This document shows, one piece after another, positions 41,661-53,963 of a stretch of DNA of 60,701 nt. Made by a program: the position numbers and the translations under genes. Each line of letters opens with the position of its first letter. The stretch's first letter is position 1. The notes beneath the pieces are model-generated. The model did no database searches. It had not been told where the DNA came from and saw nothing but the letters and a program-made list of their open reading frames with translations. The stretch spans positions 1-60,701 of the forward strand of contig JAJRSM010000007.1 in NCBI GenBank assembly GCA_024278765.1, read 5' to 3'. The stretch comes from Deltaproteobacteria bacterium. GTDB lineage: Bacteria; Desulfobacterota; GWC2-55-46; DRQE01.

Positions 41661-42470
41661 CTAAAAAATATCCTGCCGCATATCTCTAAATATATGATTT
41701 TTAGGGGTTATTTTCTTATCCCTAGCATCTGCAACATTAATATTGGCCATTGCAAAAGCCGTGCGCCTACTCGCGGCCCGCAAAAGAACCTCGCCTCGCG
41801 GCGTTACTATCTGACTCTTTCCTATAAAGGTCAGGGCATCACCAGCGCCTCTATCTTCCGTACCTACTCTATTGGCTGTAATTGCAAAAACCCTGTTTTC
41901 CAGACAGCGGGTAATCATTGCCTGCGGACAATTTGGCAAGACCAGATTAGACGGATGACATAATATATCAACCCCTTTAAGGGCCAGAGCCCGTGCTACC
42001 TCAGGGTAGATCCAGTCATAACAGATCATCATTCCGATTCGCGCCTTACCGATATTTACGACCTCAAGCGGGATATCCCCTGGGTTAAAGATTGACTTTT
42101 CATTCCAGAATAGATGGGCCTTACGGTAGACCGATATAAGGCCCTTAGGGCCGATCAAGACAGGCGAATTATAGAGTTTTTTGCCACAACGCTCGGCCAG
42201 GCCGGCAACGATATGCAGATTACGCTCTTTTGCCAGAGCAGAGAGCCTCTGTACGCTATAGCCACTTTTCAAATCTTCTGCCAACGTACGCAACTCTTTT
42301 TTAGAGGTAAATTGATAGCCAGTCGAGAAGAGCTCTGGCAAGACCAAAAGCTCAAGACCTGCTGTATCACTACGCCCGAGCCTTTTGATAACCCTATCCA
42401 GATTACCACACAGATCACCAAAGACAGGTTTGGTCTGCAAAAACCCTACCTTTATAACAGCCATAGCCAC
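41661..42470 (-). CDS. Carbon-nitrogen hydrolase (nitrilase superfamily)
   Basis: LPELFSTGY, YRKAHLF, ICYDW (Glu-Lys-Cys triad). Confidence 0.92.
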   Translation of the reverse strand: MAMAVIKVGFLQTKPVFGDLCGNLDRVIKRLGRSDTAGLELLVLPELFSTGYQFTSKKELRTLAEDLKSGYSVQRLSALAKERNLHIVAGLAERCGKKLYNSPVLIGPKGLISVYRKAHLFWNEKSIFNPGDIPLEVVNIGKARIGMMICYDWIYPEVARALALKGVDILCHPSNLVLPNCPQAMITRCLENRVFAITANRVGTEDRGAGDALTFIGKSQIVTPRGEVLLRAASRRTAFAMANINVADARDKKITPKNHIFRDMRQDIF

Positions 42471-42594
42471 GACCTCTCAATATGTTTTGCTTTACTTTGC
42501 TAGAGTATACATGACAAAAAGGCAAGCTGCAAAGACAAAGTAATAGAACTTTAAAAGACGCCCCCTCCTTTAAAGATTAAAAGATAGGGGCTCT

Positions 42595-43410
42595 TCAAAC
42601 AACCACCTGCTTACTGCCTTTACAACGTCCCTTAAGGCCCTTTACTGCCAGCAAAACAAAGAATATCAGACTTAACAATAATATAATAAGTGGAGAGGTA
42701 GGCAGGTCGTATAAATATGACAGGATTATCCCAAAAACACTCACCACAACGCCGACGCACCAGCCGCCGAGCAAGACCACGCCCGGCCTTCTGGTATAAA
42801 GCCTACCGATAAGGGCTGGGATAACAAGCATGGCAAAGACAAGAAGTATGCCACCAAGCTTTACCGAGCTTACCAGTACAAAAGCAAAACTCAGGAAGAA
42901 TATAAACTCCCATATATAGCCCCCCTTGCCCTCTCGTGTCAGCTCAAAGAACCTGCGCCTAAAGACAAGATGGATCACCCCAATAATGAAGTAGAGGATA
43001 AAGGAATAGAGAATATCACGCGGAGCGAGCCAGAGGATATTCCCGCTTAAGATGGCCTTGAACTCTTCCAGCCCATGAGGAGAACTACTCAAGACCAGAA
43101 TACTGGCCGAGAGCGAGAAGATATACAGCACCCCGATAAAGGCCTCTATATTGGTAATGCGCGCTATATACCGGGACAAAGAAAGTATTGCGGCACCGAT
43201 AACGGCAAAGCCAACTGAGAAGAGATAGCTTCCATTATCACCAAGCCCAATCAAAAACGATACGGCTATACCAAGCCCAATGAACTGAGCAAGTGATAGA
43301 TCTACAAAGATAATCCCTCGCTCCAGCATATGCACACCAAAATAGGTATGTATCGCGATAAGCATTACACATGCCAAAAACGGGTATGTTAAAAAACCAA
43401 TTGTCTCCAC
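42595..43410 (-). CDS. Metal ABC transporter permease (ZnuB/MntB-like)
   Basis: Polytopic; H.YFG.H, RGIIFVDLSLAQ, GILLVFAMLVIPA; AGGAGG RBS before GTG at 43410. Confidence 0.85.
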   Translation of the reverse strand: METIGFLTYPFLACVMLIAIHTYFGVHMLERGIIFVDLSLAQFIGLGIAVSFLIGLGDNGSYLFSVGFAVIGAAILSLSRYIARITNIEAFIGVLYIFSLSASILVLSSSPHGLEEFKAILSGNILWLAPRDILYSFILYFIIGVIHLVFRRRFFELTREGKGGYIWEFIFFLSFAFVLVSSVKLGGILLVFAMLVIPALIGRLYTRRPGVVLLGGWCVGVVVSVFGIILSYLYDLPTSPLIILLLSLIFFVLLAVKGLKGRCKGSKQVVV

Positions 43411-43550
43411 GATTCCTCCTATTTTAAAGACCCGAATGACATTTAAGCCCGAAGGGCCTTTAAATATCGAAAACACAGACCATCTACTTGCTGGACGTTA
43501 AGCCCAAAGGGCCTTGAAGCCCGAAGGGCCGTCTAATTTTCAACAGACTA

Positions 43551-44480
43551 TTATCTACCTAAAGAACTTAAAGGCCGAATGGCCCGGATGGCCCGGATGA
43601 CCCGGTCCATAAACTCAAACCAGTCTTCATCTGTATTGGTAAGACCAGCCCCCACGTCATGGGGCAGGTCAATTATATTAGTACCGGTCTCTCTAGCCAA
43701 CCAGCGAGCCTGGCGACGACCATAGTAGCTAGCGGTCAAGATCGCTGCCACGTGATTATCCTTTGTTAGCCCGACCAACCTTTGGATATAACCGCTAGAG
43801 GGCGGTACGCCCGGGCGGGGCTCTATATAACCTATTATTTCAAAACTAAAATCACGGGCCAGATACTCAAAGAGCTTATGAAAGGCGATAAAGTTATTGC
43901 CTTTAAGGCTAGCACCACTCCATTCTTTACGTTTTTCCACCATCTTTGCTTTAAAAGCCTCTAGGTTATCTTTAAAAAAAGCAGCGTTTTCAGGGTCAGC
44001 GACGGCGAATGCCGCTGCAAGCCCCCCTGCCACACGCAGGACATTGCCGGGCGAGAAGTGATAATGCGGGTTGCCTTCGGAGTGGACATCTCCCATGCTG
44101 CGATCTACCAGAGCACCAGCGCCTATTATCTCTGCAATATCAAGAAACCTTGACGCATCTATATTACCTGCCCGTCCCGTGGCTATCGCCCGGTTGCGCG
44201 AAGACTCTATCAAGATCGGTAGATATCCGGCCTCTAACCCAAGGCCATTATAAATAAGGATATCGGCGCGACGCACCGCCAACAACATACTAGGCTTTGG
44301 CTGAATAAAATGCGGATCAAGCGAGGGCCTAACCAGCACTTTGACCTCTACCCTGCCACCTCCGATATCACGCGCAACGCTCCCTATCCGCGGCAGCGTT
44401 GCAACTACATTCAGAGCCGCCATGGCCGGGGTGGCCGTAAAGAATAACAACAGACTTAACATAAATATTATTCGTTTCAT
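43551..44480 (-). CDS. Metal ABC transporter substrate-binding protein (ZnuA/TroA-like)
   Basis: Signal peptide, DPHF, GDVH..GNPHY, AFH, EPRPGVPP. Confidence 0.9.
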   Translation of the reverse strand: MKRIIFMLSLLLFFTATPAMAALNVVATLPRIGSVARDIGGGRVEVKVLVRPSLDPHFIQPKPSMLLAVRRADILIYNGLGLEAGYLPILIESSRNRAIATGRAGNIDASRFLDIAEIIGAGALVDRSMGDVHSEGNPHYHFSPGNVLRVAGGLAAAFAVADPENAAFFKDNLEAFKAKMVEKRKEWSGASLKGNNFIAFHKLFEYLARDFSFEIIGYIEPRPGVPPSSGYIQRLVGLTKDNHVAAILTASYYGRRQARWLARETGTNIIDLPHDVGAGLTNTDEDWFEFMDRVIRAIRAIRPLSSLGR

Positions 44481-44550
44481 TGATTACTCTCCTATATTCA
44501 ACACAACCACAGACGACATATAAGCCGCCTGCGGTTAGAAATGGTAGTGA

Positions 44551-46005
44551 TTAGAATGAATGCGCTCCGTGCGCGCCTATCCCGAGGATTAGCTGCAAAT
44601 ACAACTCATGGTTGGTCTCACCGGTCCTTGCCATCTCGTCGTAGTTGTACTGCAACCTGAGCCTCGTAAATTCGGTCGGGTTGAACTCAAGGCTGCCTGT
44701 CATACGCTCAGGGCTTGCGCCAAAGTCCTGATTTACGCCGTCCTTTATAAAGTCATCTTCAAAAAGGTCTAGGGCCTCGTACCTCGCACCTACTCTCCAC
44801 CGACCGAACTGATAGAAACCCTGCACGTAAAGGCCGTCCTGGCTACGCACAAGCCGCTCTACGCCGCTCGGATCAGTAGCGTCCGCGTAGTACCTGCCCG
44901 CTTGCCTACGAAGCAGATACTCCGTCTGCAGCGTCAGGGCCTTATCCTTAGACGGCCTCCACTTGTAGGTTAGCTCAGCGCCATATATCGTCGAGTCTGC
45001 TTTAAACTCACTATCACGCGCGATTGATCCGGTCTTTGTCTCTCCGCCCGCGACGGAAAATCCGGCAAGGACGGTACTGTTAACCCCTAAGTCCTTTGAG
45101 ACCTTCGCGAATGCCGCGTAGGCATGGGCGCCGTCTTCTGCGCCGTCGCCAAAGAGGACCTCATTGCTACCCTGCAAGAGCTCAAAGCCAAGCAGGGTAT
45201 AAATTGGCAGGGCCGGCATATACGTAAACTGTGCACCCTTTTCAACGAGTCCTTCCTCTCCAAAGAAGGCCAGGTAAGGCAACGGGGAATCAACAAAGTT
45301 CCACGCGTGCTGATGAAAGGCGTTGAAGCGGCCAAAGCCGCTCTTGAACTTACCTCCCTTGAGTTGCATGCCTCTTGGCAGAGCGGTCGTGACAAAATAC
45401 GCCTCTTCGACCTCAAGACCCGTCTCATTTATAGGGATCTTCGTATAGAGTTTCAGGTAAGGGTCGACCGGGGCAAATATAGCAAGCTCGACGCTCCTCA
45501 GGTTAAAGCCCTCTTTTCGGGCAGAGCCTGCCTCTTCGTTAAGGATACGGTAGCCGGGTATCTCGCGCGCATCGAGCTCGGCATCCGAGAGATTAGTACT
45601 ATAAAAGAAGGTATCCATATTAAGGCTTATTGACGGGTTCATCGAACTTTGAGAGCGGGGGGGACTTTGGAAACCGGAGGAACCGGGGACGTTCCTGGAA
45701 TTATTACCCAAGACCCCCCTGGACGCAGAGGCGACTATACGACTTACTAACCGGCCCTTATCTTCATCTTCCGGTAAGAGCCTGCCGTTAATAAGTTGCC
45801 GACGCGCGGCCTTGCCGTCTTTGAATTCCGGCTTAAGCCCTTGCCGAAGGCTCTGAATCACCGCCTCCTGGTTCTTTATTAACTTCCCTTGAGCCGCAAT
45901 GGCCCGCTCCAGTTTATTGACCCTCTCTTCTAAACTAATATTGCCTGCAAAAGCAGTTGTAGTAATTAAAAGCACCGCTACCAGTGCCGAAAAAAATATC
46001 TTCAT
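44551..46005 (-). CDS. Outer-membrane beta-barrel of the metal-uptake (zinc-regulated porin-like) type
   Basis: Signal peptide, coiled coil, NPSISL, EEAY, FGRFN..H.H.W.F.D.PL, C-terminal GAHGAHSF; AGGAGG RBS before MKIFF. Confidence 0.8.
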   Translation of the reverse strand: MKIFFSALVAVLLITTTAFAGNISLEERVNKLERAIAAQGKLIKNQEAVIQSLRQGLKPEFKDGKAARRQLINGRLLPEDEDKGRLVSRIVASASRGVLGNNSRNVPGSSGFQSPPRSQSSMNPSISLNMDTFFYSTNLSDAELDAREIPGYRILNEEAGSARKEGFNLRSVELAIFAPVDPYLKLYTKIPINETGLEVEEAYFVTTALPRGMQLKGGKFKSGFGRFNAFHQHAWNFVDSPLPYLAFFGEEGLVEKGAQFTYMPALPIYTLLGFELLQGSNEVLFGDGAEDGAHAYAAFAKVSKDLGVNSTVLAGFSVAGGETKTGSIARDSEFKADSTIYGAELTYKWRPSKDKALTLQTEYLLRRQAGRYYADATDPSGVERLVRSQDGLYVQGFYQFGRWRVGARYEALDLFEDDFIKDGVNQDFGASPERMTGSLEFNPTEFTRLRLQYNYDEMARTGETNHELYLQLILGIGAHGAHSF

Positions 46006-46198
46006 AAATTCCTCCTGTTGGAGATTAAACTGCACAAAGGCAGATATCAAACACAGCCATAGGCTCGCTGTCGTACCCTGATAAGACTCAGGGGCAACCG
46101 CAGGCTGGGCGTAAATATGCCAGAATTAAACGCAGCAATAGACGCAGAAAGACTCACGCCTTACCACTCTCATTTTTCTTTTTTCAGGGTAATCCGTC

Positions 46199-46528
46199 TT
46201 AGACGGCAGGAGGTGCTCTTGGTGCGGAACTTCTTGATACGAGTCTATATACAACTCTCTCACCTTCAAGCTCAAGCGTGGCGAGATAATCAGCATATAC
46301 CGCTAGATCAACACCCGCTTCAGTGGTAAGAGCAGGGCTATGGGCAACGGTGGCGCAGGTTACGCAATCCATATTATGCGAGCGGGCATCATCATGGTGA
46401 TGAACAGCACCCACCATAAAGGTAAAGAGCATCGCTAAAACAACTACGCTGTGCAACGCCTTAGATCGCATATTGATTCGTCTAAACATAAGGTAAAAGA
46501 TCATACCAAAAAGACCCTTCATATTCAA
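46199..46528 (-). CDS. DUF2946/CruR-like small exported protein ending in RAPP (start uncertain, possibly 46471)
   Basis: Hydrophobic N-terminus, HHH..H..CVTC, C-terminal APRAPPAV. Confidence 0.75.
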   Translation of the reverse strand: MNMKGLFGMIFYLMFRRINMRSKALHSVVVLAMLFTFMVGAVHHHDDARSHNMDCVTCATVAHSPALTTEAGVDLAVYADYLATLELEGERVVYRLVSRSSAPRAPPAV

Positions 46529-46566
46529 GAACAGGAATAAGAAACAAGGGCACTCTTTTGCTCAGG

Positions 46567-47259
46567 CTACTTCAGCATAGCCCTAAAGAGCTCGTGAGAC
46601 TCTGCGCTATTCCACTTGCGAGCACCGGTTATTTTGCCAACAAACCGCCCGTCCCGCCCGATCACATAGGTCATTGGAAGTACAGTTACAAGATAAAGCC
46701 TACGCACGTGATTGTCATGGTCAAGAACAATATCCATTTTGATATTAGACTTTCTGATAAATTTGCCGACTATCTTCTTTGTCCACGCATATGACCCTCT
46801 ATCGACAGCTACGCCGATCACACGAAGCCCCTTGCCTTCCATATCAGCACGCAGTTCACCGAGCATCGGCATTTCTTTGCGGCACACCTTGCACCAAGTA
46901 GCCCAAAAATGCAGCAATACAAGATCGCCTTTGAGATCGCCCATAACCAACGGCTTGCCGTCCATATCCTTGGGTGTAAACTCAGGGGCGAGCTTACGGA
47001 GCGTAAAATCAGGGGCGAGCTTACGCTCGCTGGGCATAACCATTCCAAAGGCCTTTGCCTGCACCTTATAGCTCTCTATCTTGTGATTCGCTACTAAGAC
47101 CTCTCCAGCCAAGACCGCAGTCGGGATAAATGCCCTAATAAATATAAAAAGACATAAAATAAAAGCTACTATATATTTTCTAAAGAAGTTATCCTTCCCC
47201 GCCTGACAAACCATAACTACCTCGCGTTGTTTATTAAATATTTTCCTATAAGCTTCCAT
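46567..47259 (-). CDS. TlpA-like thiol-disulfide oxidoreductase (start uncertain)
   Basis: FWATWCKVCRKEMP, LPMTYVI; N-terminal TM; 27-bp duplication encoding RKLAP(D/E)FT. Confidence 0.88.
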   Translation of the reverse strand: MEAYRKIFNKQREVVMVCQAGKDNFFRKYIVAFILCLFIFIRAFIPTAVLAGEVLVANHKIESYKVQAKAFGMVMPSERKLAPDFTLRKLAPEFTPKDMDGKPLVMGDLKGDLVLLHFWATWCKVCRKEMPMLGELRADMEGKGLRVIGVAVDRGSYAWTKKIVGKFIRKSNIKMDIVLDHDNHVRRLYLVTVLPMTYVIGRDGRFVGKITGARKWNSAESHELFRAMLK

Positions 47260-47495
47260 TCTTCTTCACTCATGGAAGGCACTCCTCGCTCCTTCATTAC
47301 CTGGCGCATCCGGGGTAGCCAGCTCTCCCACTGAGTGGCCGTAAAACGTTTTGGATGCGCCAGCGCATGGCACGTAGCACACCTATTACGGTAAAGGCTC
47401 GCCGCCTCTGAGCCATCATTAGGGATAGGGGTTGGCAAGGCTACGCAGCCTAAGAGTCCTACCATTAAAACAACCACCCAAAAAAACCTTGCCAT
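47217..47495 (-). CDS. Monoheme c-type cytochrome lipoprotein
   Basis: Lipobox LLGC, CATCH, W...LPRM (candidate Met ligand). Confidence 0.82.
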   Translation of the reverse strand: MARFFWVVVLMVGLLGCVALPTPIPNDGSEAASLYRNRCATCHALAHPKRFTATQWESWLPRMRQVMKERGVPSMSEEEWKLIGKYLINNAR

Positions 47496-47528
47496 GCCCC
47501 ACCTCCTTAAAACCGATCTTAATTTCGA

Positions 47529-48707
47529 CTAAAAACCAAGCCTATTCTTACCATTCCTCTCGCTACCCACATACCTCTTGCTTTTTTTCGTAGGTATCTC
47601 GATATACCAAGTTAGCATCACCGAATAATCCTCTTCAAGCTGACGTCCATACATGTCCTGATATATTGGTGTGCTCACGCCGAGTGCAATTATGTGTAGC
47701 GGCTTTGGCTGCCACTGAAGCTCTGCCGTAACCGCAACGGTCTTACCCCCGTAGTTATCAGGGTCCCATGCAGGCGACATATAACCACTGCTCGCATCAA
47801 AGCGAGTCTTTCTACCTGACTCACCGGTTAGGGCCTGATCTGCCTCTCCGTCGATACGGCCTTTGTACCTGGCGTTTAACTGAAGCCCGGCGACCAGATT
47901 ATAGGTAAGCTGGCGCATACCGTAGAGATCCAACCTGAACTCATCACCATATTGCCAGCCCTGCGAATTGTCATATAATCTGGCCGTATAGATGGCATTA
48001 ACGCCCCACCACCACGGTGAAAGCGAGCCCTCATATAACAGCCCAATACTCGGGTCAAATGTCCCCGTACCAAGCTGCATGGCATAAGGCAGCAGCTCGC
48101 CTCGGCGTTCCGCCAAAGGATGATTGGTATTATTCTCACTGATCGAACCTGCCGGCAGGCTAAGCCCCATAACGAGCGATACCTGACTCTTTGGAATATC
48201 AGGGTCATCGGTATAGAGTCTGTACTTTCCCATCAGCATAACGTCGCCGATACCGCCGGACTCCATCGTATAACTTTCTTTTCCGGTCATGTTCCGCATC
48301 GGCTGGTTAAACTTCATACCCATGCTATTTTCCTTCCACATAAGCATCGCACCGAGAAAGATATCGTCGCTATAGCTATAGCCAACGGTCATATTCACCA
48401 TGCTCATATCCATATACGACGGGGCCGCCATAAACTCCGAGCCCATACCGCCGCTAACCAGTGACTTTTCACTTAGAGAATCAGTCCCGTCTCGCATCCC
48501 CTCCATACGCATAAACATAGGGCTAAGCTTCACACGCAGTTCATAGGTGGCGGGCACGCCGCCGCCCGGTATATTAAGCGGCATATTACCACCGCACTTT
48601 GCGCAGCACAGCCCAACGTAGGCCTCTGCAACAACCGGCATAACCAGTAACAAAATAATAACTAAAAACACAGACGATATTCGCCTAAGGTGTTTACTAA
48701 GATACAT
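47529..48707 (-). CDS. Met/Cys-rich outer-membrane transporter-like beta-barrel
   Basis: Signal peptide then CCAKCGGNMP; GIGDV and QLGTGTFD motifs of SphA/MetA-pathway-like barrels; GGAGG RBS before MYLSK. Confidence 0.7.
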   Translation of the reverse strand: MYLSKHLRRISSVFLVIILLLVMPVVAEAYVGLCCAKCGGNMPLNIPGGGVPATYELRVKLSPMFMRMEGMRDGTDSLSEKSLVSGGMGSEFMAAPSYMDMSMVNMTVGYSYSDDIFLGAMLMWKENSMGMKFNQPMRNMTGKESYTMESGGIGDVMLMGKYRLYTDDPDIPKSQVSLVMGLSLPAGSISENNTNHPLAERRGELLPYAMQLGTGTFDPSIGLLYEGSLSPWWWGVNAIYTARLYDNSQGWQYGDEFRLDLYGMRQLTYNLVAGLQLNARYKGRIDGEADQALTGESGRKTRFDASSGYMSPAWDPDNYGGKTVAVTAELQWQPKPLHIIALGVSTPIYQDMYGRQLEEDYSVMLTWYIEIPTKKSKRYVGSERNGKNRLGF

Positions 48708-48871
48708 ATTTAAAGACCTCCCGAAAAGGCAGCTAAACCACGGGCAGCTCTGGCAACAAACGCTTGTGCACAATCAAATACGCACAAAAAAACGCATCTA
48801 TACCCAGCCGCAGCCGCAGCGGTAATTAATAAAATATTTTTAAAATTTACTAGAATTACTAAAGAAAGGCT

Positions 48872-49540
48872 TTAGTGCTTGGGAGGTTTCTGAGGTGTAT
48901 CACCATATAATTCATCATAGATAAAGGCCAACGCAACTGAAAGATACTCAGTCGCAAAGGTCCTGACAGGGGGCATATACTGCGCCGGCACGTAGCTCTC
49001 GGCGACCGAGAGGAAGGCGGCAACCGCGCCATCGCTCTTTTGACAACCAACACAGCCACAATCAAGAAGGACCTTGCAATTGCCCTTTTTATCAAGCTCA
49101 ATGTCAGCATCGCCTTTAATATGGGCATGGCCTGTATCATGCGCCCCTTTTGCGTCATACAGATCCGATAGATGAACGCCCGTGCCGGTATGCGTATCTT
49201 TATCCAGATGAACGCCCGTGCCAGTATGCGTATCTTTATCCAGATGAACGCCCGTGCCAGTATGCGTATCTTTATCCAGATGAACGCCCGTGCCAGTATG
49301 CGTATCTTTATCCAAATGAACGCCCGTGCCAGTATGCGTATCTTTATCCAGATGAACACCCGTGTCTGCGCCTTTCTCATGCTTAGAATGAGACTCTGAC
49401 GTTAGATGAGCACCCTCGGAAGCGTCATCTTCTACATGCACACCCTCACCAAGACCCGAGACTATCCCGGCCTCAGAGACAGAGACAACAGCAAGAGCAG
49501 CAAAGACCGCAAAGAAGGCTATCAAAAAGAGTTTTTTCAT
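48872..49540 (-). CDS. Secreted His-rich tandem-repeat protein ending in KPPKH
   Basis: Signal peptide MKKLFLIAFF..SEA, (HLDKDTHTGTGV)x5, CKVLLDCGCVGC, C-terminal PQKPPKH. Confidence 0.75.
   Translation of the reverse strand: MKKLFLIAFFAVFAALAVVSVSEAGIVSGLGEGVHVEDDASEGAHLTSESHSKHEKGADTGVHLDKDTHTGTGVHLDKDTHTGTGVHLDKDTHTGTGVHLDKDTHTGTGVHLDKDTHTGTGVHLSDLYDAKGAHDTGHAHIKGDADIELDKKGNCKVLLDCGCVGCQKSDGAVAAFLSVAESYVPAQYMPPVRTFATEYLSVALAFIYDELYGDTPQKPPKH
49170..49364. repeat. 36-bp coding tandem repeat, 5 copies plus a partial
   Basis: AGATGAACGCCCGTGCCAGTATGCGTATCTTTATCC at 49170, 49206, 49242, 49278, 49314; partial at 49350. Confidence 0.97.
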
Positions 49541-49716
49541 GATTTTAATCTTAACACACAACAAAACCACAAACAAGACACTCGCTATCTTGTTTGTAAA
49601 TTAAAAAACTATCTCTCGTTTCCACATAGATCGACAAATATTTACATAACTAAAGATGATTGAGATTTTTGTATGATATGTCATATAAAACAAAAGGCCA
49701 CAAAGTTTATCGCAAA

Positions 49717-49779
49717 CGTCCACGAGACGCCCATAAATATCCAGCCATTAATAGTTATCTAACGCCTCCTTCCGTCTCA
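49717..49779. repeat. 63-bp direct repeat, copy 1
   Basis: CGTCCACGAGACGCCCATAAATATCCAGCC..CCTCCTTCCGTCTCA, near-identical to 52329-52391. Confidence 0.92.
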
Positions 49780-49856
49780 GCCGAATTACAAAAATACAAA
49801 TAACAAAACAAATTAAATCTCCCTTTAGATTCCCCCATAAAAAAAAAGAGATCAAA

Positions 49857-50115
49857 ATCAGATTGCCGCGTCGGCTTACGCCTCCTCGCAACGACATAGT
49901 AAGTGGCGCAACCCACCCATAAACTACCGAGCTAACGTAGGGCGAGGCTTTAGCCTTGCCGGTGCTCTTCTGTCTCTATACTAAAAAGACGCAACCCTAA
50001 AGGGTGCTGCGCACAGCAAATGTATTAACTTCGTACTACGCGCTGCATCAACCATCCTAATGTACTTTACCGCCCCGTAGTCGCTTTGCCCCCACGCATG
50101 TGGGCTGCCCTACGA
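49857..50115. repeat. REP/MITE-like cluster with a nested 100-bp insert
   Basis: CAGATTGC..CTCCTCGCAACGAC, GTAGGGCGAGGCTTTAGCCTTGC, GCAACCCTAAAGGGT[50006-50105]TGCCCTAC. Confidence 0.7.
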
Positions 50116-50304
50116 TAAAACAAAAGCAAAAAAGTTAAGAGCCACATTCACCTTGACCGCATTAATCAAAAATTATATATTGTTAAATATTTATACAAAC
50201 CAAGGCTAAACACACTGCGACCTCCGTAACATCCATCACCCCTAATGCGCATCAAGGCCTTGCTAAATTACTTTAAAGATACCCGCAAACCCGAGAGGCA
50301 GTGA

Positions 50305-51117
50305 ATGAAAAATAACTTTGGCCCGCCCATAGAAGGAATCGAAGAAGCAAAGACCGTTGTATATACAGGGGTGGTCTTGCTGATAGTGCTCGCTATTATA
50401 TACCTTGTACTTCACAGCGCGTATAAGGGACACTCTTACAACAAAGACGACGCAGGAGAGTTCTTCAACAAGCTCGGAGCTGCCAAGGCATCCGTTATGA
50501 CGGCCTCGCCGGCCTCAGCCGATATAAAAAAATCACTCAAAGAGCTGCAAGAATTAAAGAGCACGGTACTATCTCAGGAATTCACAGAAAAAATCAACTA
50601 CCTCTACGGCTTCACCCAGACCTTTAAAAGCGCCACCACGCTCAATGCCAATGACCTGCGCCTGACAAAGATAAAGACCGAGCTTGACAGTATCGAAAAG
50701 ATGGCCCTGTCGCTATCGCGTAACGATGGTTTTTTCTGGGTCGTAGGGCCGCTGCGCTGGCTGGAGGTCATCTTCTGGGGAGAGTTCGGGGTGATCGTCG
50801 GAATACTCGTCTGGGTCTGCACGCAGCTTAAGGCCAACAGCTATTCAAAGGCAACCTATATGCGTGAGAAGTTCTGGTACCTTACCGAGATAGCCATAGG
50901 TCCGGTAGTCGTCATATCGGTCTTCTTCATATTAAAAGTACTGCTAGAGAGCCTGTCCGGCAGCCCGTATTCTCAAGACGATATAAGAGGCTCGATACAT
51001 ATAACGCTCGGAGTATCCTTCGCACTCGGGCTATACATCAGAAGAAGCCTCGGCATCTTTAACTTTATAAAGGATAAACTGCCGAACCCGGATAAGAAAG
51101 AAGCAAGAAAGGTCTAA
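50305..51117 (+). CDS. Hypothetical membrane protein (about 4 TM)
   Basis: 270-aa ORF with GAGG RBS, one N-terminal TM, helical soluble part, three C-terminal TMs; family not recognised. Confidence 0.7.
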   Translation: MKNNFGPPIEGIEEAKTVVYTGVVLLIVLAIIYLVLHSAYKGHSYNKDDAGEFFNKLGAAKASVMTASPASADIKKSLKELQELKSTVLSQEFTEKINYLYGFTQTFKSATTLNANDLRLTKIKTELDSIEKMALSLSRNDGFFWVVGPLRWLEVIFWGEFGVIVGILVWVCTQLKANSYSKATYMREKFWYLTEIAIGPVVVISVFFILKVLLESLSGSPYSQDDIRGSIHITLGVSFALGLYIRRSLGIFNFIKDKLPNPDKKEARKV

Positions 51118-51201
51118 AAACAAGAGAAAAGAAAACACTTTCTTTTCTGCCAAAAGAACTGAAAAACATTTAAATAATCAATATTCTAATAAAGATTACG
51201 A

Positions 51202-51230
51202 TTGACATATTTTTACAAAATATATATCTT
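51202..51230 (+). promoter_or_regulatory. Sigma70-type promoter
   Basis: TTGACA (51202-51207), 17 bp, TATCTT (51225-51230). Confidence 0.65.
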
Positions 51231-51236
51231 AAATAT

Positions 51237-51330
51237 AGAGTGATAAGACCATTGTGGGTTGTCTGTAGTGTTCCCTTCCGGAGGTTGATAAAGCTATGGC
51301 GCAACAAGCCTGCAGGGCACGCTCTTTTTT
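51237..51330 (+). ncRNA. Putative ~90-nt hairpin RNA or attenuating leader
   Basis: Starts just after the promoter; nested pairings AGAGTG/CGCTCT, TTGTGGGTTGT/ACAAGCCTGCAG, CTGTAGT/GCTATGG; ends in a T-run. Confidence 0.45.
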
Positions 51331-51364
51331 ATTTTTCAGGTAAATAGTACAATAGGAGTTACTT

Positions 51365-52266
51365 TTGGACACTAATCAAATCAAAGATCTAAATAAATTA
51401 AATAAAAAATCTGGGAATGCAGAACCTGTGATTTTCATTCAGAAACTAATGGGCTATTCCCCTATAAACCCGATGCGCCTTTTTTCAACCCTGATGAATA
51501 TATAAACCCTAAACACCCAAAGGTAATAACCGTAGGTATAAATCCCGGCTGGAACAACAACTTTGAATTCGAAAAATGGGTAAAAATCTATGAAGAGACA
51601 GACTATGATAAGGTCTCCAGTAAATTTGTTAACCAAGTAGAAGAAGAAAATAAAAGCAACATACACAGAGACCCGTACAGAACTGGCATAACCAAGACCT
51701 TTAATATCGTCAATAAACATTTAAAAATATACACAGAAGAAGATATCAGAAAAGAAGATATAGCAGAAGAAGATATCAAACGAGAAGCTATATATAAATA
51801 TGCCCTCTGGAACAACCTCTCATACTGTGCATCACAAAGGCCAAACGAAAGGTCATTTGATAGCAAAAATATAACCTGCAACACATATACCGAGGAGATA
51901 CCTAACTGCCTTGAACACGGCTACTTAAGAGATATGATAGAAATAATCAAGCCAGAACTAGTACTTTTTTTTGGTTCAAATAACTATATTTACTACAAAG
52001 TCCTCATAAAAAAACTCTTCAAAAAACAACCCTTCAAAACAGACCCGTGCAGCAAACCTGAATCTTTCAAGTCAATAAGTAAAGAATATACAGCTCATAA
52101 AAGGGGCGATAAAGATATCAAGACTACTATTGCTGCTGGCATAATAGATACAAAGCCTTTTAAAACAAAGGCTATCTTTATTCCCCACCCTAACTATCCT
52201 ATTACCGATGAGAACAGAAAAAAAGCATTAAAAGAAATCTGTGAATGGATAAAGAATCCAGAATAA
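51365..52266 (+). pseudogene. Uracil-DNA-glycosylase-superfamily gene, frameshifted in an A6 run (51404-51409)
   Basis: AGGAG RBS + TTG 51365; frame from 51409 is open to 52266: IWECRTC, KVITVGINPG, NLSYC, EIPNC, IKPELVLFFG, IPHP. Confidence 0.72.
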
Positions 52267-52328
52267 CCCCCCTACCTCTTCTTCAAAAAAATATTATAAA
52301 AGCAAAAAATGACAAGACTCGTTACGAG

Positions 52329-52391
52329 CGTCCACGAGACGCCCATAAATATCCAGCCGTTAATAGTCATCTAGATCCTCCTTCCGTCTCA
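52329..52391. repeat. 63-bp direct repeat, copy 2
   Basis: Near-identical to 49717-49779. Confidence 0.92.
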
Positions 52392-52403
52392 AACAACCCA
52401 AAA

Positions 52404-53963
52404 CTAATCGCCGCAATTACCATTGGCCCTCCGTCTCGTCCATGCCGCCCTGACTATCAATATATGAGCTATAAAAAGAACTATTAAAAACCCGCGAGCC
52501 GCCCATACGCCAGCACCACTCTTACCTAGGATCTTTGGCAGGTCCTGATACCCCCAGGCAAAGAGGATAATAACCAGAAAGGCCGGAGTTACGTACTTCA
52601 TCAGGTAGAAAAAAAACCTCGGCACCTTTATATGCGCACCCCTGTTTATCTCATCCCACGCACGCTCGCCGCCAAGGACCCACATAAATATTACCATCTC
52701 AAAGAGCGCGAGAATAACCAAAGCGAATGTAGCGACCCAAAAATCCAGCTCATCGAGTGCTCCCTTGACAAACATAGGTAACGTTACCGTCACTAAAAAA
52801 AAGACGCCCAACCAGAAGACCGCCTTCTTTCGTTTCCAGTTGAATTCGTCTTCAAGGAAGGCAATCACCGGCTGAGATAGCGCAACGACCGAGGTGATTC
52901 CGGCAATAAATAAAAGCAGAAACCACAAAAACCCAAAAAACTGCCCTGCTGGCATATGCGTAAAGACCGCAGGCATACTGATAAAGCCCAGACCAAAGGC
53001 CCCGCCCTCGGCTATCTCTTTTGCCCCTGATGCGCCGAAAAATATTACGGCCGAGACAATCGCAATAGTAGATCCAAAGATAACCTCGGCAAATTGATTA
53101 AGGCTCGCCGCCGATAGGCCGTCCAGAGCGATATCGTCATTTTTATTAACGTAGCTCGCATAGGTAATTACCGCCCCCAGCCCCAGCGACAATGTGAAAA
53201 AGACCTGACCCGCCGCGGCCAACCAGACCTTGCTATTTAAGAGTCCGCTCAAGTCCGGCTCCCAAAGAAAGCTAAAACCCGTGGTGACGGTCAAAGCAGG
53301 ATCGGTCGGAGACTCAAGGGTTACAACCCGCACAAGGAGCACCAAGGCCATCAGGAACAAAGCCGGAATTGCAATCTTACTGAGTTTTTCGATACCGCCG
53401 CTGATCCCCTTACCCAGCACCCAGAGGCCAAGGCCGAGGGTAATGATAAAGAAGATATAGACCATCGGGTGCGGCGTCATAAAGACGCCGGTCGTATCAG
53501 ATCCTATAAGAGAGCCGAGATAGTTCTGGAAAGGTTTGAGGAATTCCGCCGGAGAGCCGGCGACAAGTGCCGTCTCTGCCGTCGGCAGATAATTAAACAA
53601 AGACGATAGGCTAAAGGCCAGAGTCCAGGAGCAGATATATATATAGTAGATTAAAACAACAAGCGGCAGGAAGATGCCAAGGATGCCGATATATTTTGCC
53701 AACCTGTGTTTCCAGATTGCATCAAAGATACCCGGGGTAGAACCGTGCCCCCTGATACCTCCGTAACGCCCCAGCCCCCACTCTACCCACATCAGCGGAA
53801 TACCGAGGACGATAAAACAGATAAAATATGGGATCATAAACGCGCCGCCGCCGTTCTCAGCGGCCTGCACAGGAAAGCGCAGAAAATTACCAAGCCCTAT
53901 GGCATTACCGGCCATCGCCAGTATCAACCCAATTCTAGAGCCCCATTGTTCACGTCTTGCCAT
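52404..53963 (-). CDS. Neurotransmitter:sodium symporter family transporter (LeuT-like)
   Basis: REQWGSRIGLILAMAGNAIGLGNFLRFP, GQVFFTLSLG, 12 predicted TM. Confidence 0.93.
   Translation of the reverse strand: MARREQWGSRIGLILAMAGNAIGLGNFLRFPVQAAENGGGAFMIPYFICFIVLGIPLMWVEWGLGRYGGIRGHGSTPGIFDAIWKHRLAKYIGILGIFLPLVVLIYYIYICSWTLAFSLSSLFNYLPTAETALVAGSPAEFLKPFQNYLGSLIGSDTTGVFMTPHPMVYIFFIITLGLGLWVLGKGISGGIEKLSKIAIPALFLMALVLLVRVVTLESPTDPALTVTTGFSFLWEPDLSGLLNSKVWLAAAGQVFFTLSLGLGAVITYASYVNKNDDIALDGLSAASLNQFAEVIFGSTIAIVSAVIFFGASGAKEIAEGGAFGLGFISMPAVFTHMPAGQFFGFLWFLLLFIAGITSVVALSQPVIAFLEDEFNWKRKKAVFWLGVFFLVTVTLPMFVKGALDELDFWVATFALVILALFEMVIFMWVLGGERAWDEINRGAHIKVPRFFFYLMKYVTPAFLVIILFAWGYQDLPKILGKSGAGVWAARGFLIVLFIAHILIVRAAWTRRRANGNCGD

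Follow-up and report, generated by a model that had tools for sequence, protein, structure and literature searches.

A histidine-repeat gene with a KPP end as a candidate leader of a Met-rich barrel gene in an uncultured deltaproteobacterium

We have analysed a stretch of 60,701 nucleotides (nt) from a Deltaproteobacteria bacterium (GTDB lineage Bacteria; Desulfobacterota; GWC2-55-46; DRQE01; assembly GCA_024278765.1, contig JAJRSM010000007.1, positions 1 to 60,701), hereafter the window. The subject is one gene in it, which encodes a probably exported protein rich in histidine (His) and ending in PQKPPKH, and which may act as a leader of the gene that follows. This His-repeat gene heads a string of genes that all lie on the minus strand, in the order His-repeat gene, barrel 1, cytochrome c-like gene, TlpA-like gene, an open reading frame (ORF) with a RAPP end, barrel 2, ZnuA gene and ZnuB-like permease gene. 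The identical gene order is found in another species of the genus (L002; also L007 and L008).

The His-repeat gene and its relatives

The His-repeat ORF occupies 48875..49540, with its stop codon at 48872-48874, and encodes a leader-like protein of 222 amino acids (aa; P0001) with a His/Asp array, a Cys motif and a QKPPKH end; the features of this section are all on the minus strand. A first-pass annotation, made from the letters alone, had given the span as 48708..49540. The gene is indeed there, but 48708 is the first intergenic base and not the gene start. The same annotation had read most of the protein correctly. Residues 1-24 (49469..49540, ...SVSEA|G) form a signal-peptide-like N-terminus which on inspection has the classical Sec look (MKK, a hydrophobic run, SEA|G) and is kept in the five full-length homologs, the product starting with MKKLFLIAFFAVFAALAVVSVSEA|G. 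A degenerate His-rich stretch lies between this N-terminus and the repeat array. The array is a 36-bp tandem repeat of 5.4 copies with 97% matches (49170..49364), its three central units being identical at the DNA level, and it encodes exactly five copies of HLDKDTHTGTGV, the number claimed before. In total the protein has 19 His, some of them beyond the array; the mature part of 198 aa carries 19 His, five His/Asp units and four conserved Cys. The Cx5CxCxxC motif described earlier was found at C155-x5-C161-x-C163-xx-C166 (49043..49078), and the translation ends, as had been reported, in ...PQKPPKH.

The last codons of the gene also belong to predicted RNA elements. Codons Q217-K218-P219-P220 (CAG AAA CCT CCC, 48881..48892) include ACCUCCC at 48881-48887, the predicted anti-Shine-Dalgarno arm, and an RNA fold places a stop-codon hairpin, CUAAAG-CCUUU-CUUUAG, at 48859..48875. 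Behind the gene comes an intergenic spacer with internal hairpins (48708..48871; C 16%, G 24%). The leader does lie upstream of the first barrel gene, as stated previously, although the spacer measures 164 nt rather than 165, the ATG of barrel 1 being at 48707. The RAPP ORF (46199-46465, ...SSAPRAPPAV) has the same layout, 193 nt upstream of the second barrel gene, and this parallel drawn in the first-pass annotation holds. Endings of the type PPxx-stop are found in only 8 of the 2173 crude ORFs of the genome, two of the eight being the His leader and the RAPP ORF, while PP among the last six residues is found in 24 of the 2173.

Relatives of the protein are few. A word-indexed search of 5.8 billion proteins returned four besides the window's own record, and an exhaustive HMMER search of 1.84 billion representatives with a profile of the C-terminal 103 residues returned three clusters, namely P0006, the remote P0008 and P0009. 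The last of these (3069 aa, E 6e-4) was considered as a relative and is taken for a chance match to a Cys-rich repeat protein. Within the order, the gene is present in two of 77 genomes, that of the window and one of the same genus; scans of genomes and metagenome contigs located it in other DNA of one species-level group only (L002, L007, L008). The family comparisons below are made with six members, of which five are close and one, P0008, is remote (39% identity).

All four Cys of the motif, and thus CxCxxC, are invariant in the six members, the CXXC part being CVGC, CFGC or CAGC. The distance from the last Cys to PP is 52 residues in all five close members and 51 in P0008. The motif reads QKPP in four members, HKPP in one (P0007) and QRPP in one; two residues separate PP from the stop in five of the six, and five do so in P0008, while the residues just upstream of the motif are variable. 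Alignment of the homolog C-termini for (R/K)PP, the check proposed in the first-pass annotation, has therefore come out in its favour, since [QH][KR]PP is kept in 6/6 members including the 39%-identical P0008.

The repeat array behaves differently. The six members contain 5, 4, 4, 1, 1 and 0 His units (P0005 and P0006 have one, P0008 none), and L002, L007 and P0005, which belong to one species-level group, have one unit each. The units are homogenised inside each array and differ between arrays. That is, the array consists of near-identical in-frame units whose number differs between close relatives, as in a variable-number tandem repeat. The homologs are 161-210 aa long, except for P0008 with 125 aa, the sole member below 150 aa. 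Because P0008 has no units at this length, the conserved core matches a leader in size, as judged from sequence, the array being an accessory of this genus.

The C-terminal 100 residues are 81% identical to L002. Against the same sequence (one sequence pair), the ratio of non-synonymous to synonymous substitution rates (dN/dS) is 0.28 for the C-terminal 103 codons and 0.25 for the N-terminal 38 codons of the His leader, compared with 0.29 for the RAPP ORF and 0.10 for barrel 1. These ratios indicate that the leader ORF is under purifying selection similar to that on the RAPP leader. No usable Pfam or NCBIfam match was obtained for the His protein, the only ones being TafF at 17 bits and Hexapep below its cut-off. 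AlphaFold2 on the six-sequence alignment gave no confident fold (mean predicted local distance difference test score, pLDDT, 40). A comparison of residues 125-222 with the ESM atlas gave scores all below 0.9, among which DUF6769 (0.86) and a DUF2946-labelled cluster (0.82, at rank 18) are leads only.

Pairing of the KPP codons with the Shine-Dalgarno sequence, and other [KR]PP leaders

Barrel 1's Shine-Dalgarno (SD) sequence, GGGAGGU, lies at 48716..48722 on the minus strand and is the predicted partner of the KPP codons. In the minimum-free-energy structure of the window, ACCUCCC of the K-P-P codons pairs with GGGAGGU, and the K-P-P codons and the SD are paired in L002 too; the partition function gives a pairing probability of 1.0 in both. 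We have compared this with the 237 genes of the genome whose ATG is preceded by GGAGG at a distance of 4-9 nt and whose ORF has 100 aa or more. In this set no SD core is less accessible than that of barrel 1 (rank 1/237, mean unpaired probability 0.0002), and that of barrel 2 takes rank 10/237 for sequestration. The computed cost of opening the 24-nt window of the ribosome-binding site (RBS) of barrel 1 is 13.6 kcal/mol, and it drops to 6.8 kcal/mol with a ribosome footprint modelled over the PP codons; the genome has a median of 8.6 and a 90th percentile of 14.0 kcal/mol.

Comparison with L002 also reveals one compensatory double change in the stop-codon hairpin (CUAGAG/CUCUAG; two distinct sequences compared). 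In 11 of the 12 leaders looked at, the PP pair begins with CCT, compared with 255 of the 989 PP dicodons in the whole genome. The possibility of an intrinsic terminator within the spacer was weighed and set aside, as the only candidate is a weak terminator-like hairpin at 48788-48763 that is not conserved in L002. A Rho-dependent mechanism of the CruR type was ranked lower as the spacer is neither C-rich nor G-poor, which is weak evidence. In the Rfam search of 43000-53000, neither a riboswitch nor a leader family came up close to the operon.

Similar arrangements recur outside the His family. Close orthologs of barrel 1, with 57-59% identity, are present in three other genera. In G007 (L035:1061-1429) and G008 (L045), the ortholog is preceded by an ORF of 122 aa with a signal peptide, several Cys and His residues and the end [EH]RPPQTG; its codons AGACCUCCACAAAC (R-P-P-Q-T) form a perfect 14-bp helix with GUUUGUGGAGGUCU, which holds the SD (z -3.76, 0/200 shuffles). 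In G004 (L046) the leader has 159 aa and the end ERPPKTS, and it is related to the G007 leader across the N-terminal 68 residues (E 3e-5); its helix with the SD, here that of a CGMACC-type barrel, has 21 pairs. G029 (L040, about 953-1399), from another family of the order, has an open frame of 149 residues ending in ERPPSTIL before a 29%-identical barrel, and the codons just upstream of PP pair with the barrel SD. Among the five [KR]PP leaders that were quantified, the pairing probability is at least 0.96 each, and a ribosome on PP halves the opening cost in 5/5. The RAPP leaders of the same bacterial family pair less strongly (0.85, about 0.45, 0.97 and 0.62), and three leaders from more distant genomes are without such pairing (0.03-0.40).

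Like the His leader, these [EH]RPP leaders have an apparent signal peptide, a Cys/His-rich mature part and [KR]PP[QKS] 3-4 residues before the stop, and they have a barrel downstream (CCxxCGG or CGxxCC after its signal peptide) with the 3' codons paired to its SD. They differ from it in length (122-159 aa), in having no tandem repeats and in their spacers of 62-120 nt. HHalign detected no homology between them and the His family (probability below 3%, the single alignment returned covering 25 C-terminal residues at 2.6%). These second and third kinds of secreted, Cys/His-rich leader and the His family suggest that there is a wider [KR]PP leader class. In the parts of the literature on DUF2946, CutF and CruR that were covered, no description of [EH]RPP leaders was found.

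A further ORF on the minus strand of L020 (G242) ends in ...SPIAKPPQA, not in RAPP. It has a weak DUF2946 match (E 0.002) and stands before a TolC/OEP-like gene; its PP codons are CCG CCT, and its SD pairing is weak (0.40).

The operon and its surroundings

Barrel 1 (47529..48707, minus strand, as are all the genes of the operon) is a secreted protein of 392 aa with CCAKCGG after the signal peptide and 28 Met. It is PF13557-like (Phenol_MetA_deg / 'transporter') by ESM features only; HMMER found no Pfam or NCBIfam match for it, and sequence searches of the PDB gave nothing relevant for either barrel. Barrel 1 and its orthologs (L002, L034, L035, L036) share an invariant CC(A/S/G)KCGGNMP(L/M)NI right after the signal peptide, and 7% of barrel 1 is Met, in clustered M-x-M runs. 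Because of the CCxKCGG motif and the Met runs, its sequence suggests a channel that binds soft metal of the Cu(I) type.

Next come a small c-type cytochrome-like protein with a CATCH motif (47217..47495), whose matches are below curated cut-offs, and a TlpA-like thioredoxin-fold protein (46567..47259; AhpC-TSA/Redoxin, 1.4e-20) with an uncertain start codon. The RAPP ORF (46199..46465) resembles CruR and DUF2946 proteins at a borderline 22.9 bits against a cut-off of 23.7. It has CVTC, then 45 residues and RAPPAV-stop, and the published hallmarks, i.e., CVTC, 45 residues, RAPP, two residues and the stop, are present in 4/4 RAPP relatives. By these hallmarks, the RAPP ORF is a genuine CruR-like leader within the same gene string. 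It is followed by barrel 2 (44551..46005), a secreted protein of 484 aa with an N-terminal coiled-coil-like segment; the RAPP codons pair with the barrel 2 SD. The barrel 2 of the sister species (L002:3275-3538, plus strand) has a His/Cys-rich insert (…HDVEGHKHACEHHGDGGG…) past the coiled-coil-like segment, which the barrel 2 of the window is without.

The operon continues with a ZnuA-family periplasmic metal-binding protein (43551..44480, 4e-48) and a metal ABC transporter permease of the AztB/ZnuB type (42595..43476). After these two, in the minus-strand region 41661-43476, there is a nitrilase-like gene and not an ABC ATPase gene. The ATPase of the transporter must be encoded elsewhere or missing, because it is the nitrilase-like gene that stands after the ZnuB-like gene. 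In G007 the module of RAPP ORF and barrel 2 is on a separate contig, and for this reason we regard the operon of the window as a chain of two modules that are able to exist apart.

Upstream of the His-repeat gene, a promoter-like site, ATGACA-17-AATCAT (9/12), lies at 49656..49684 on the minus strand; it comes from a consensus scan only, which gave nine sites in the region, no excess over a shuffle mean of 7.1. Within the presumed 5' untranslated region (UTR), at 49567..49599 on the same strand and 27 nt upstream of the leader ATG, there is a terminator-like hairpin of 14 bp followed by a U-rich tail. By alignment its arms are kept in L007 and L002, where A-to-G changes in the 5' arm hold the pairing only as G:U. 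As these arm changes keep the pairing in this way, they suggest that the 5' UTR holds an RNA-level element, which may be an attenuator or a stabiliser.

Two other elements were seen in the same region. A direct repeat of 93 nt with 80% identity has copies at 49687-49779 and 52299-52391, each overlapping a small plus-strand ORF for a similar peptide (...RPRDAHKYPA(I/V)NS(Y/H)L.PPSV). The first copy belongs to some 580 nt of additional intergenic DNA which L007 does not have, the spacer upstream of the His-repeat gene being 183 nt in L007 and 764 nt in the window; the repeat may be a small mobile or structured element. A full-length match to the Rfam DUF3800-V RNA (RF02964) lies at 51231-51329 on the plus strand (60.5 bits against a gathering threshold of 37.4, E 8e-12).

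Readings of the His-repeat gene and comparison with known leaders

Based on the above analyses, we lean towards a cis-acting and probably metal-responsive leader role for the His-repeat gene, in which the dwell of the ribosome at KPP unmasks the RBS of the barrel; we give this reading a slight preference. With a similarly modest degree of confidence, we consider that the architecture is of the CutF and CruR kind, that the family is new and unrelated in sequence, and that the leader controls translation of the Met-rich barrel. In free mRNA, the K-P-P codons would, by computation, hide the barrel SD through the ACCUCCC-GGGAGGU pairing. A ribosome on these codons would occupy the anti-SD arm, approximately halving the computed opening cost of the RBS. 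The [QH][KR]PP end would slow or arrest the ribosome, and synthesis of the barrel would follow the dwell time, which in turn could be determined by the binding of metal to the nascent chain during its co-translational export. Since the CxCxxC motif is at a fixed 52 residues behind PP, it should be just outside the exit tunnel when PP is decoded, and the His/Asp repeats should then be already on the periplasmic side. The favoured polarity is that of CruR, where metal would relieve the pause and the channel would be shut off, because the operon carries uptake genes of the ZnuA/ZnuB type; the opposite polarity of CutF is equally compatible with the sequences. The 36-bp array would alter the length of the exported part of the sensor with the frame intact. 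The proposal that repeat number tunes the response takes as its basis only the variation in unit number between lineages. A periplasmic role of the mature protein in binding metal is possible as well.

On the other hand, a number of observations weigh against this leader reading. As for the RNA, the opening cost of barrel 1, 13.6 kcal/mol, is only near the 90th percentile of the genome, which was computed in a slightly different sequence context. The modelled footprint frees the SD core only partly, the unpaired probability becoming 0.02-0.24 in the window and 0.01-0.41 in L002. The helix still appears in 68-72 of 100 shuffles of the spacer, which it can therefore do without, and the complementarity of CCUCC with GGAGG is partly expected from the constraints of PP coding and of the SD. 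As for the peptide, position 2 of the motif is K/R in 6/6 members, where RAPP-like motifs have A/G/D (PMC10987492), and the RPP tripeptide gave no stalling in an E. coli reporter in which APP does (Starosta et al. 2014, PMC4176338). A length of 222 aa exceeds the limit of <150 aa that defines CutF-like proteins. PF11162 matches none of the six His-family members even at E up to 10, and HHalign against eight DUF2946-like leaders of the phylum gives a probability of 0.4%. The 52-residue spacer is far better conserved than that of the RAPP leaders, which fits a folded functional domain at least as well. Moreover, the barrel 1 ortholog of G056 has no leader, and that of G001 probably has none either (none is seen, the contig ending 213 nt upstream).

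The first serious alternative, which we think rather unlikely, is that the product is a periplasmic His-rich metal-binding protein, i.e., a chaperone, buffer or 'sponge', working with the barrel and the ZnuA-type transporter, and that the KPP motif and its RNA pairing are non-regulatory. The composition of the 198-aa mature part, with its 19 His, five His/Asp units and four conserved Cys, would suit such a protein. The whole C-terminal 100 residues are conserved (81% to L002, dN/dS 0.28) and are recognisable at 39% in P0008, and the protein is longer than the CutF-like leaders described (PMC9973294). The weak hexapeptide-repeat matches below cut-off (E 3e-4) hint at a beta-solenoid, but AlphaFold gave no confident fold at a mean pLDDT of 40, which is weak evidence to the contrary. 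Against this alternative, the His units are dispensable in the family (none in P0008, one in P0005 and P0006), while CxCxxC, the spacing of 51-52 and [KR]PP are kept. The alternative leaves unexplained why PP should be invariant 2-5 residues before the stop amid variable neighbours, why sequestration of the SD by exactly the PP codons should rank 1/237, and why the same helix should occur in unrelated leaders of other genera. A sponge role and a leader role may coexist in the same protein.

An equally serious and about equally improbable alternative is simple coupling of translation in which the nascent chain senses no metal, PP being a by-product of CCUCC complementing GGAGG. The 3' end of the leader would then be merely an anti-SD, and each ribosome that passes through it would open the RBS of the barrel for a short time. 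It agrees with the observations that the arms alone form the helix, which is kept in 68-100 of 100 spacer shuffles, that the K/R codons (AAA/AAG/AGA) lie opposite the UCU following GGAGG, and that RPP does not intrinsically cause stalling in E. coli (PMC4176338). Each of the three frames, or the untranslated spacer, would serve the RNA, yet the anti-SD is read as Pro-Pro in 9/9 leaders of the bacterial family that pair through it. The RAPP peptide motif is conserved despite other Pro codons elsewhere (PMC9426467). The fixed distance from Cys to PP (52, 52, 52, 52, 52, 51) and the Q/H before K/R are features at the peptide level, and the leaders all have apparent signal peptides and Cys/His motifs. 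Neither coupling nor the metal-binding alternative accounts for the fixed distance from Cys to PP in combination with the frame in which every leader of the lineage reads the anti-SD; neither of them is exclusive of a regulatory role.

A more elaborate version of the leader idea appears doubtful to us. In it, the gene would be a force-sensing, metal-gated arrest leader of a new family, whose repeats pull the chain and whose unit number sets the metal threshold. While the ribosome decodes [QH][KR]PP, the exported His/Asp repeats of 12 residues would fold on periplasmic metal, pull the chain and release the pause. Since the paused codons are the anti-SD, release would re-close the helix and shut the Met-rich uptake channel. 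In-frame gain or loss of 36-bp units would set the threshold for each lineage, and one operon with two leader types, KPP and RAPP, would gate two outer-membrane channels separately. Finally, an error of assembly or annotation as the origin of the repeat array, or of the ORF itself, is hardly credible: the three central 36-bp units are identical, so short-read assembly cannot fix their copy number, but independent assemblies carry 4, 4, 1 and 1 units, the gene order is the same in L002, L007 and L008, dN/dS is well below 1 and the unit length is a multiple of 3.

Returning to the reading of a cis-acting leader, its meaning lies in its relation to what has been published. Metal sensing by nascent leaders, as in CruR and CutF, was described only in 2022-2025 and has been tied to one Pfam family, DUF2946. 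This locus suggests a wider principle, in which [QHE][KR]PP leaders with no detectable similarity to DUF2946 precede a class of outer-membrane barrels rich in Met in several genera of an uncultured lineage of Thermodesulfobacteriota, and the proline codons of such leaders would double as the anti-SD. With its variable number of His repeats, one of these leaders would offer a natural handle on the question of how an exported leader part determines the response. Leaders of this type would escape a length filter such as <150 aa. If true, the reading would provide a compact and portable metal-responsive translational switch, and would be a motive for looking for arrest-type leaders through their architecture (signal peptide, Cys/His, PP by the stop and SD pairing) instead of through homology.

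In the covered part of the literature on DUF2946, CutF and CruR, consisting of titles, abstract openings and passages, we have found no leader with a tandem His array, no family of [KR]PP leaders before PF13557-like barrels, no use of Pro codons as anti-SD and no two leader types chained in one operon; the supplementary clusters of PMC9973294 could bear on the first two of these points.

The first-pass annotation had called the protein an elongated homolog of an arrest peptide. This view is upheld as far as the CutF/CruR anatomy, the position and the conservation of [KR]PP are concerned. The term homolog, in contrast, is not supported, since the protein shows no relationship in sequence that could be detected with either DUF2946 or the RAPP ORF; its family has the motif [QH][KR]PP and not RAPP, and a Cys-to-PP spacing of 52 and not 47. 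The exhaustive HMMER search with the C-terminal profile of the His family likewise returned no DUF2946 protein.

CruR of Bordetella pertussis (Bp2923) is a copper-responsive upstream ORF of the DUF2946/PF11162 family with CXXC, a 45-residue spacing and RAPP three residues before its end, followed by a 162-bp spacer and a TonB-dependent transporter gene; copper sensed by the nascent chain relieves the arrest and allows Rho termination (PMC9426467). The RAPP motif is kept at the peptide level in organisms that use other Pro codons (PMC9426467). The His leader is CruR-like in being an apparently exported ORF that heads a metal-related operon, with CXXC at a fixed distance from a PP near the stop, a spacer of 164 nt against 162 nt and an outer-membrane transporter gene downstream. 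It is unlike CruR in having QKPP rather than RAPP, 222 aa rather than 145 aa, and a His/Asp tandem array. The distance from CXXC to the four-residue motif is 50 residues (49 in P0008) against 45, and that from the last Cys to PP is 52 or 51 in the His family against 47 in 4/4 RAPP leaders of the lineage. While CruR works through Rho-dependent termination, the His leader is predicted to work through SD sequestration, and its spacer is not C-rich.

CutF, from cutFOG of Rhodobacter capsulatus, combines a Sec signal peptide with CxxxC and an end rich in Pro, and stalling induced by copper allows the ribosome to melt a stem-loop shielding the SD of cutO (PMC9973294; bioRxiv 10.1101/2025.02.05.636593). 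The filter of Ozturk et al. (2023) for CutF-like proteins takes those below 150 aa with PP within the last 15 residues, some clusters having His-only motifs (PMC9973294). The His leader has PP within its last 15 residues, a Cys/His motif, a same-strand gene within 1000 nt downstream and, in silico only, an mRNA structure that shields the SD. CutF shares with it the signal peptide (apparent in the His leader), the Cys metal motif, the Pro-rich end and, as modelled for the His leader, the shielding structure. The differences are that CutF has about 90 aa in its mature form, ends in PPP and has a stem-loop described as intergenic, whereas in the His leader the Pro codons themselves would be the anti-SD arm, and that the gene downstream of CutF is a detoxifying oxidase, in place of a barrel in an uptake context.

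Arrest peptides of the RAPP-like (RQH) type are the third point of comparison. Their motif is (R/Q/H)(A/G/D)(P/G/S)(P/G), the third residue being in the P site at the stall, and SecM, ApdA/ApdP and their relatives have no overall similarity and are thought to have arisen repeatedly (PMC10987492). They share with the His leader an N-terminal export signal (apparent in the His leader), a variable spacer and a C-terminal motif of four residues ending in PP, and the His family fits their motif at positions 1 (Q or H), 3 and 4. The RAPP-like arrest peptides sit upstream of secA, secDF or yidC, and the His leader sits upstream of an outer-membrane barrel.

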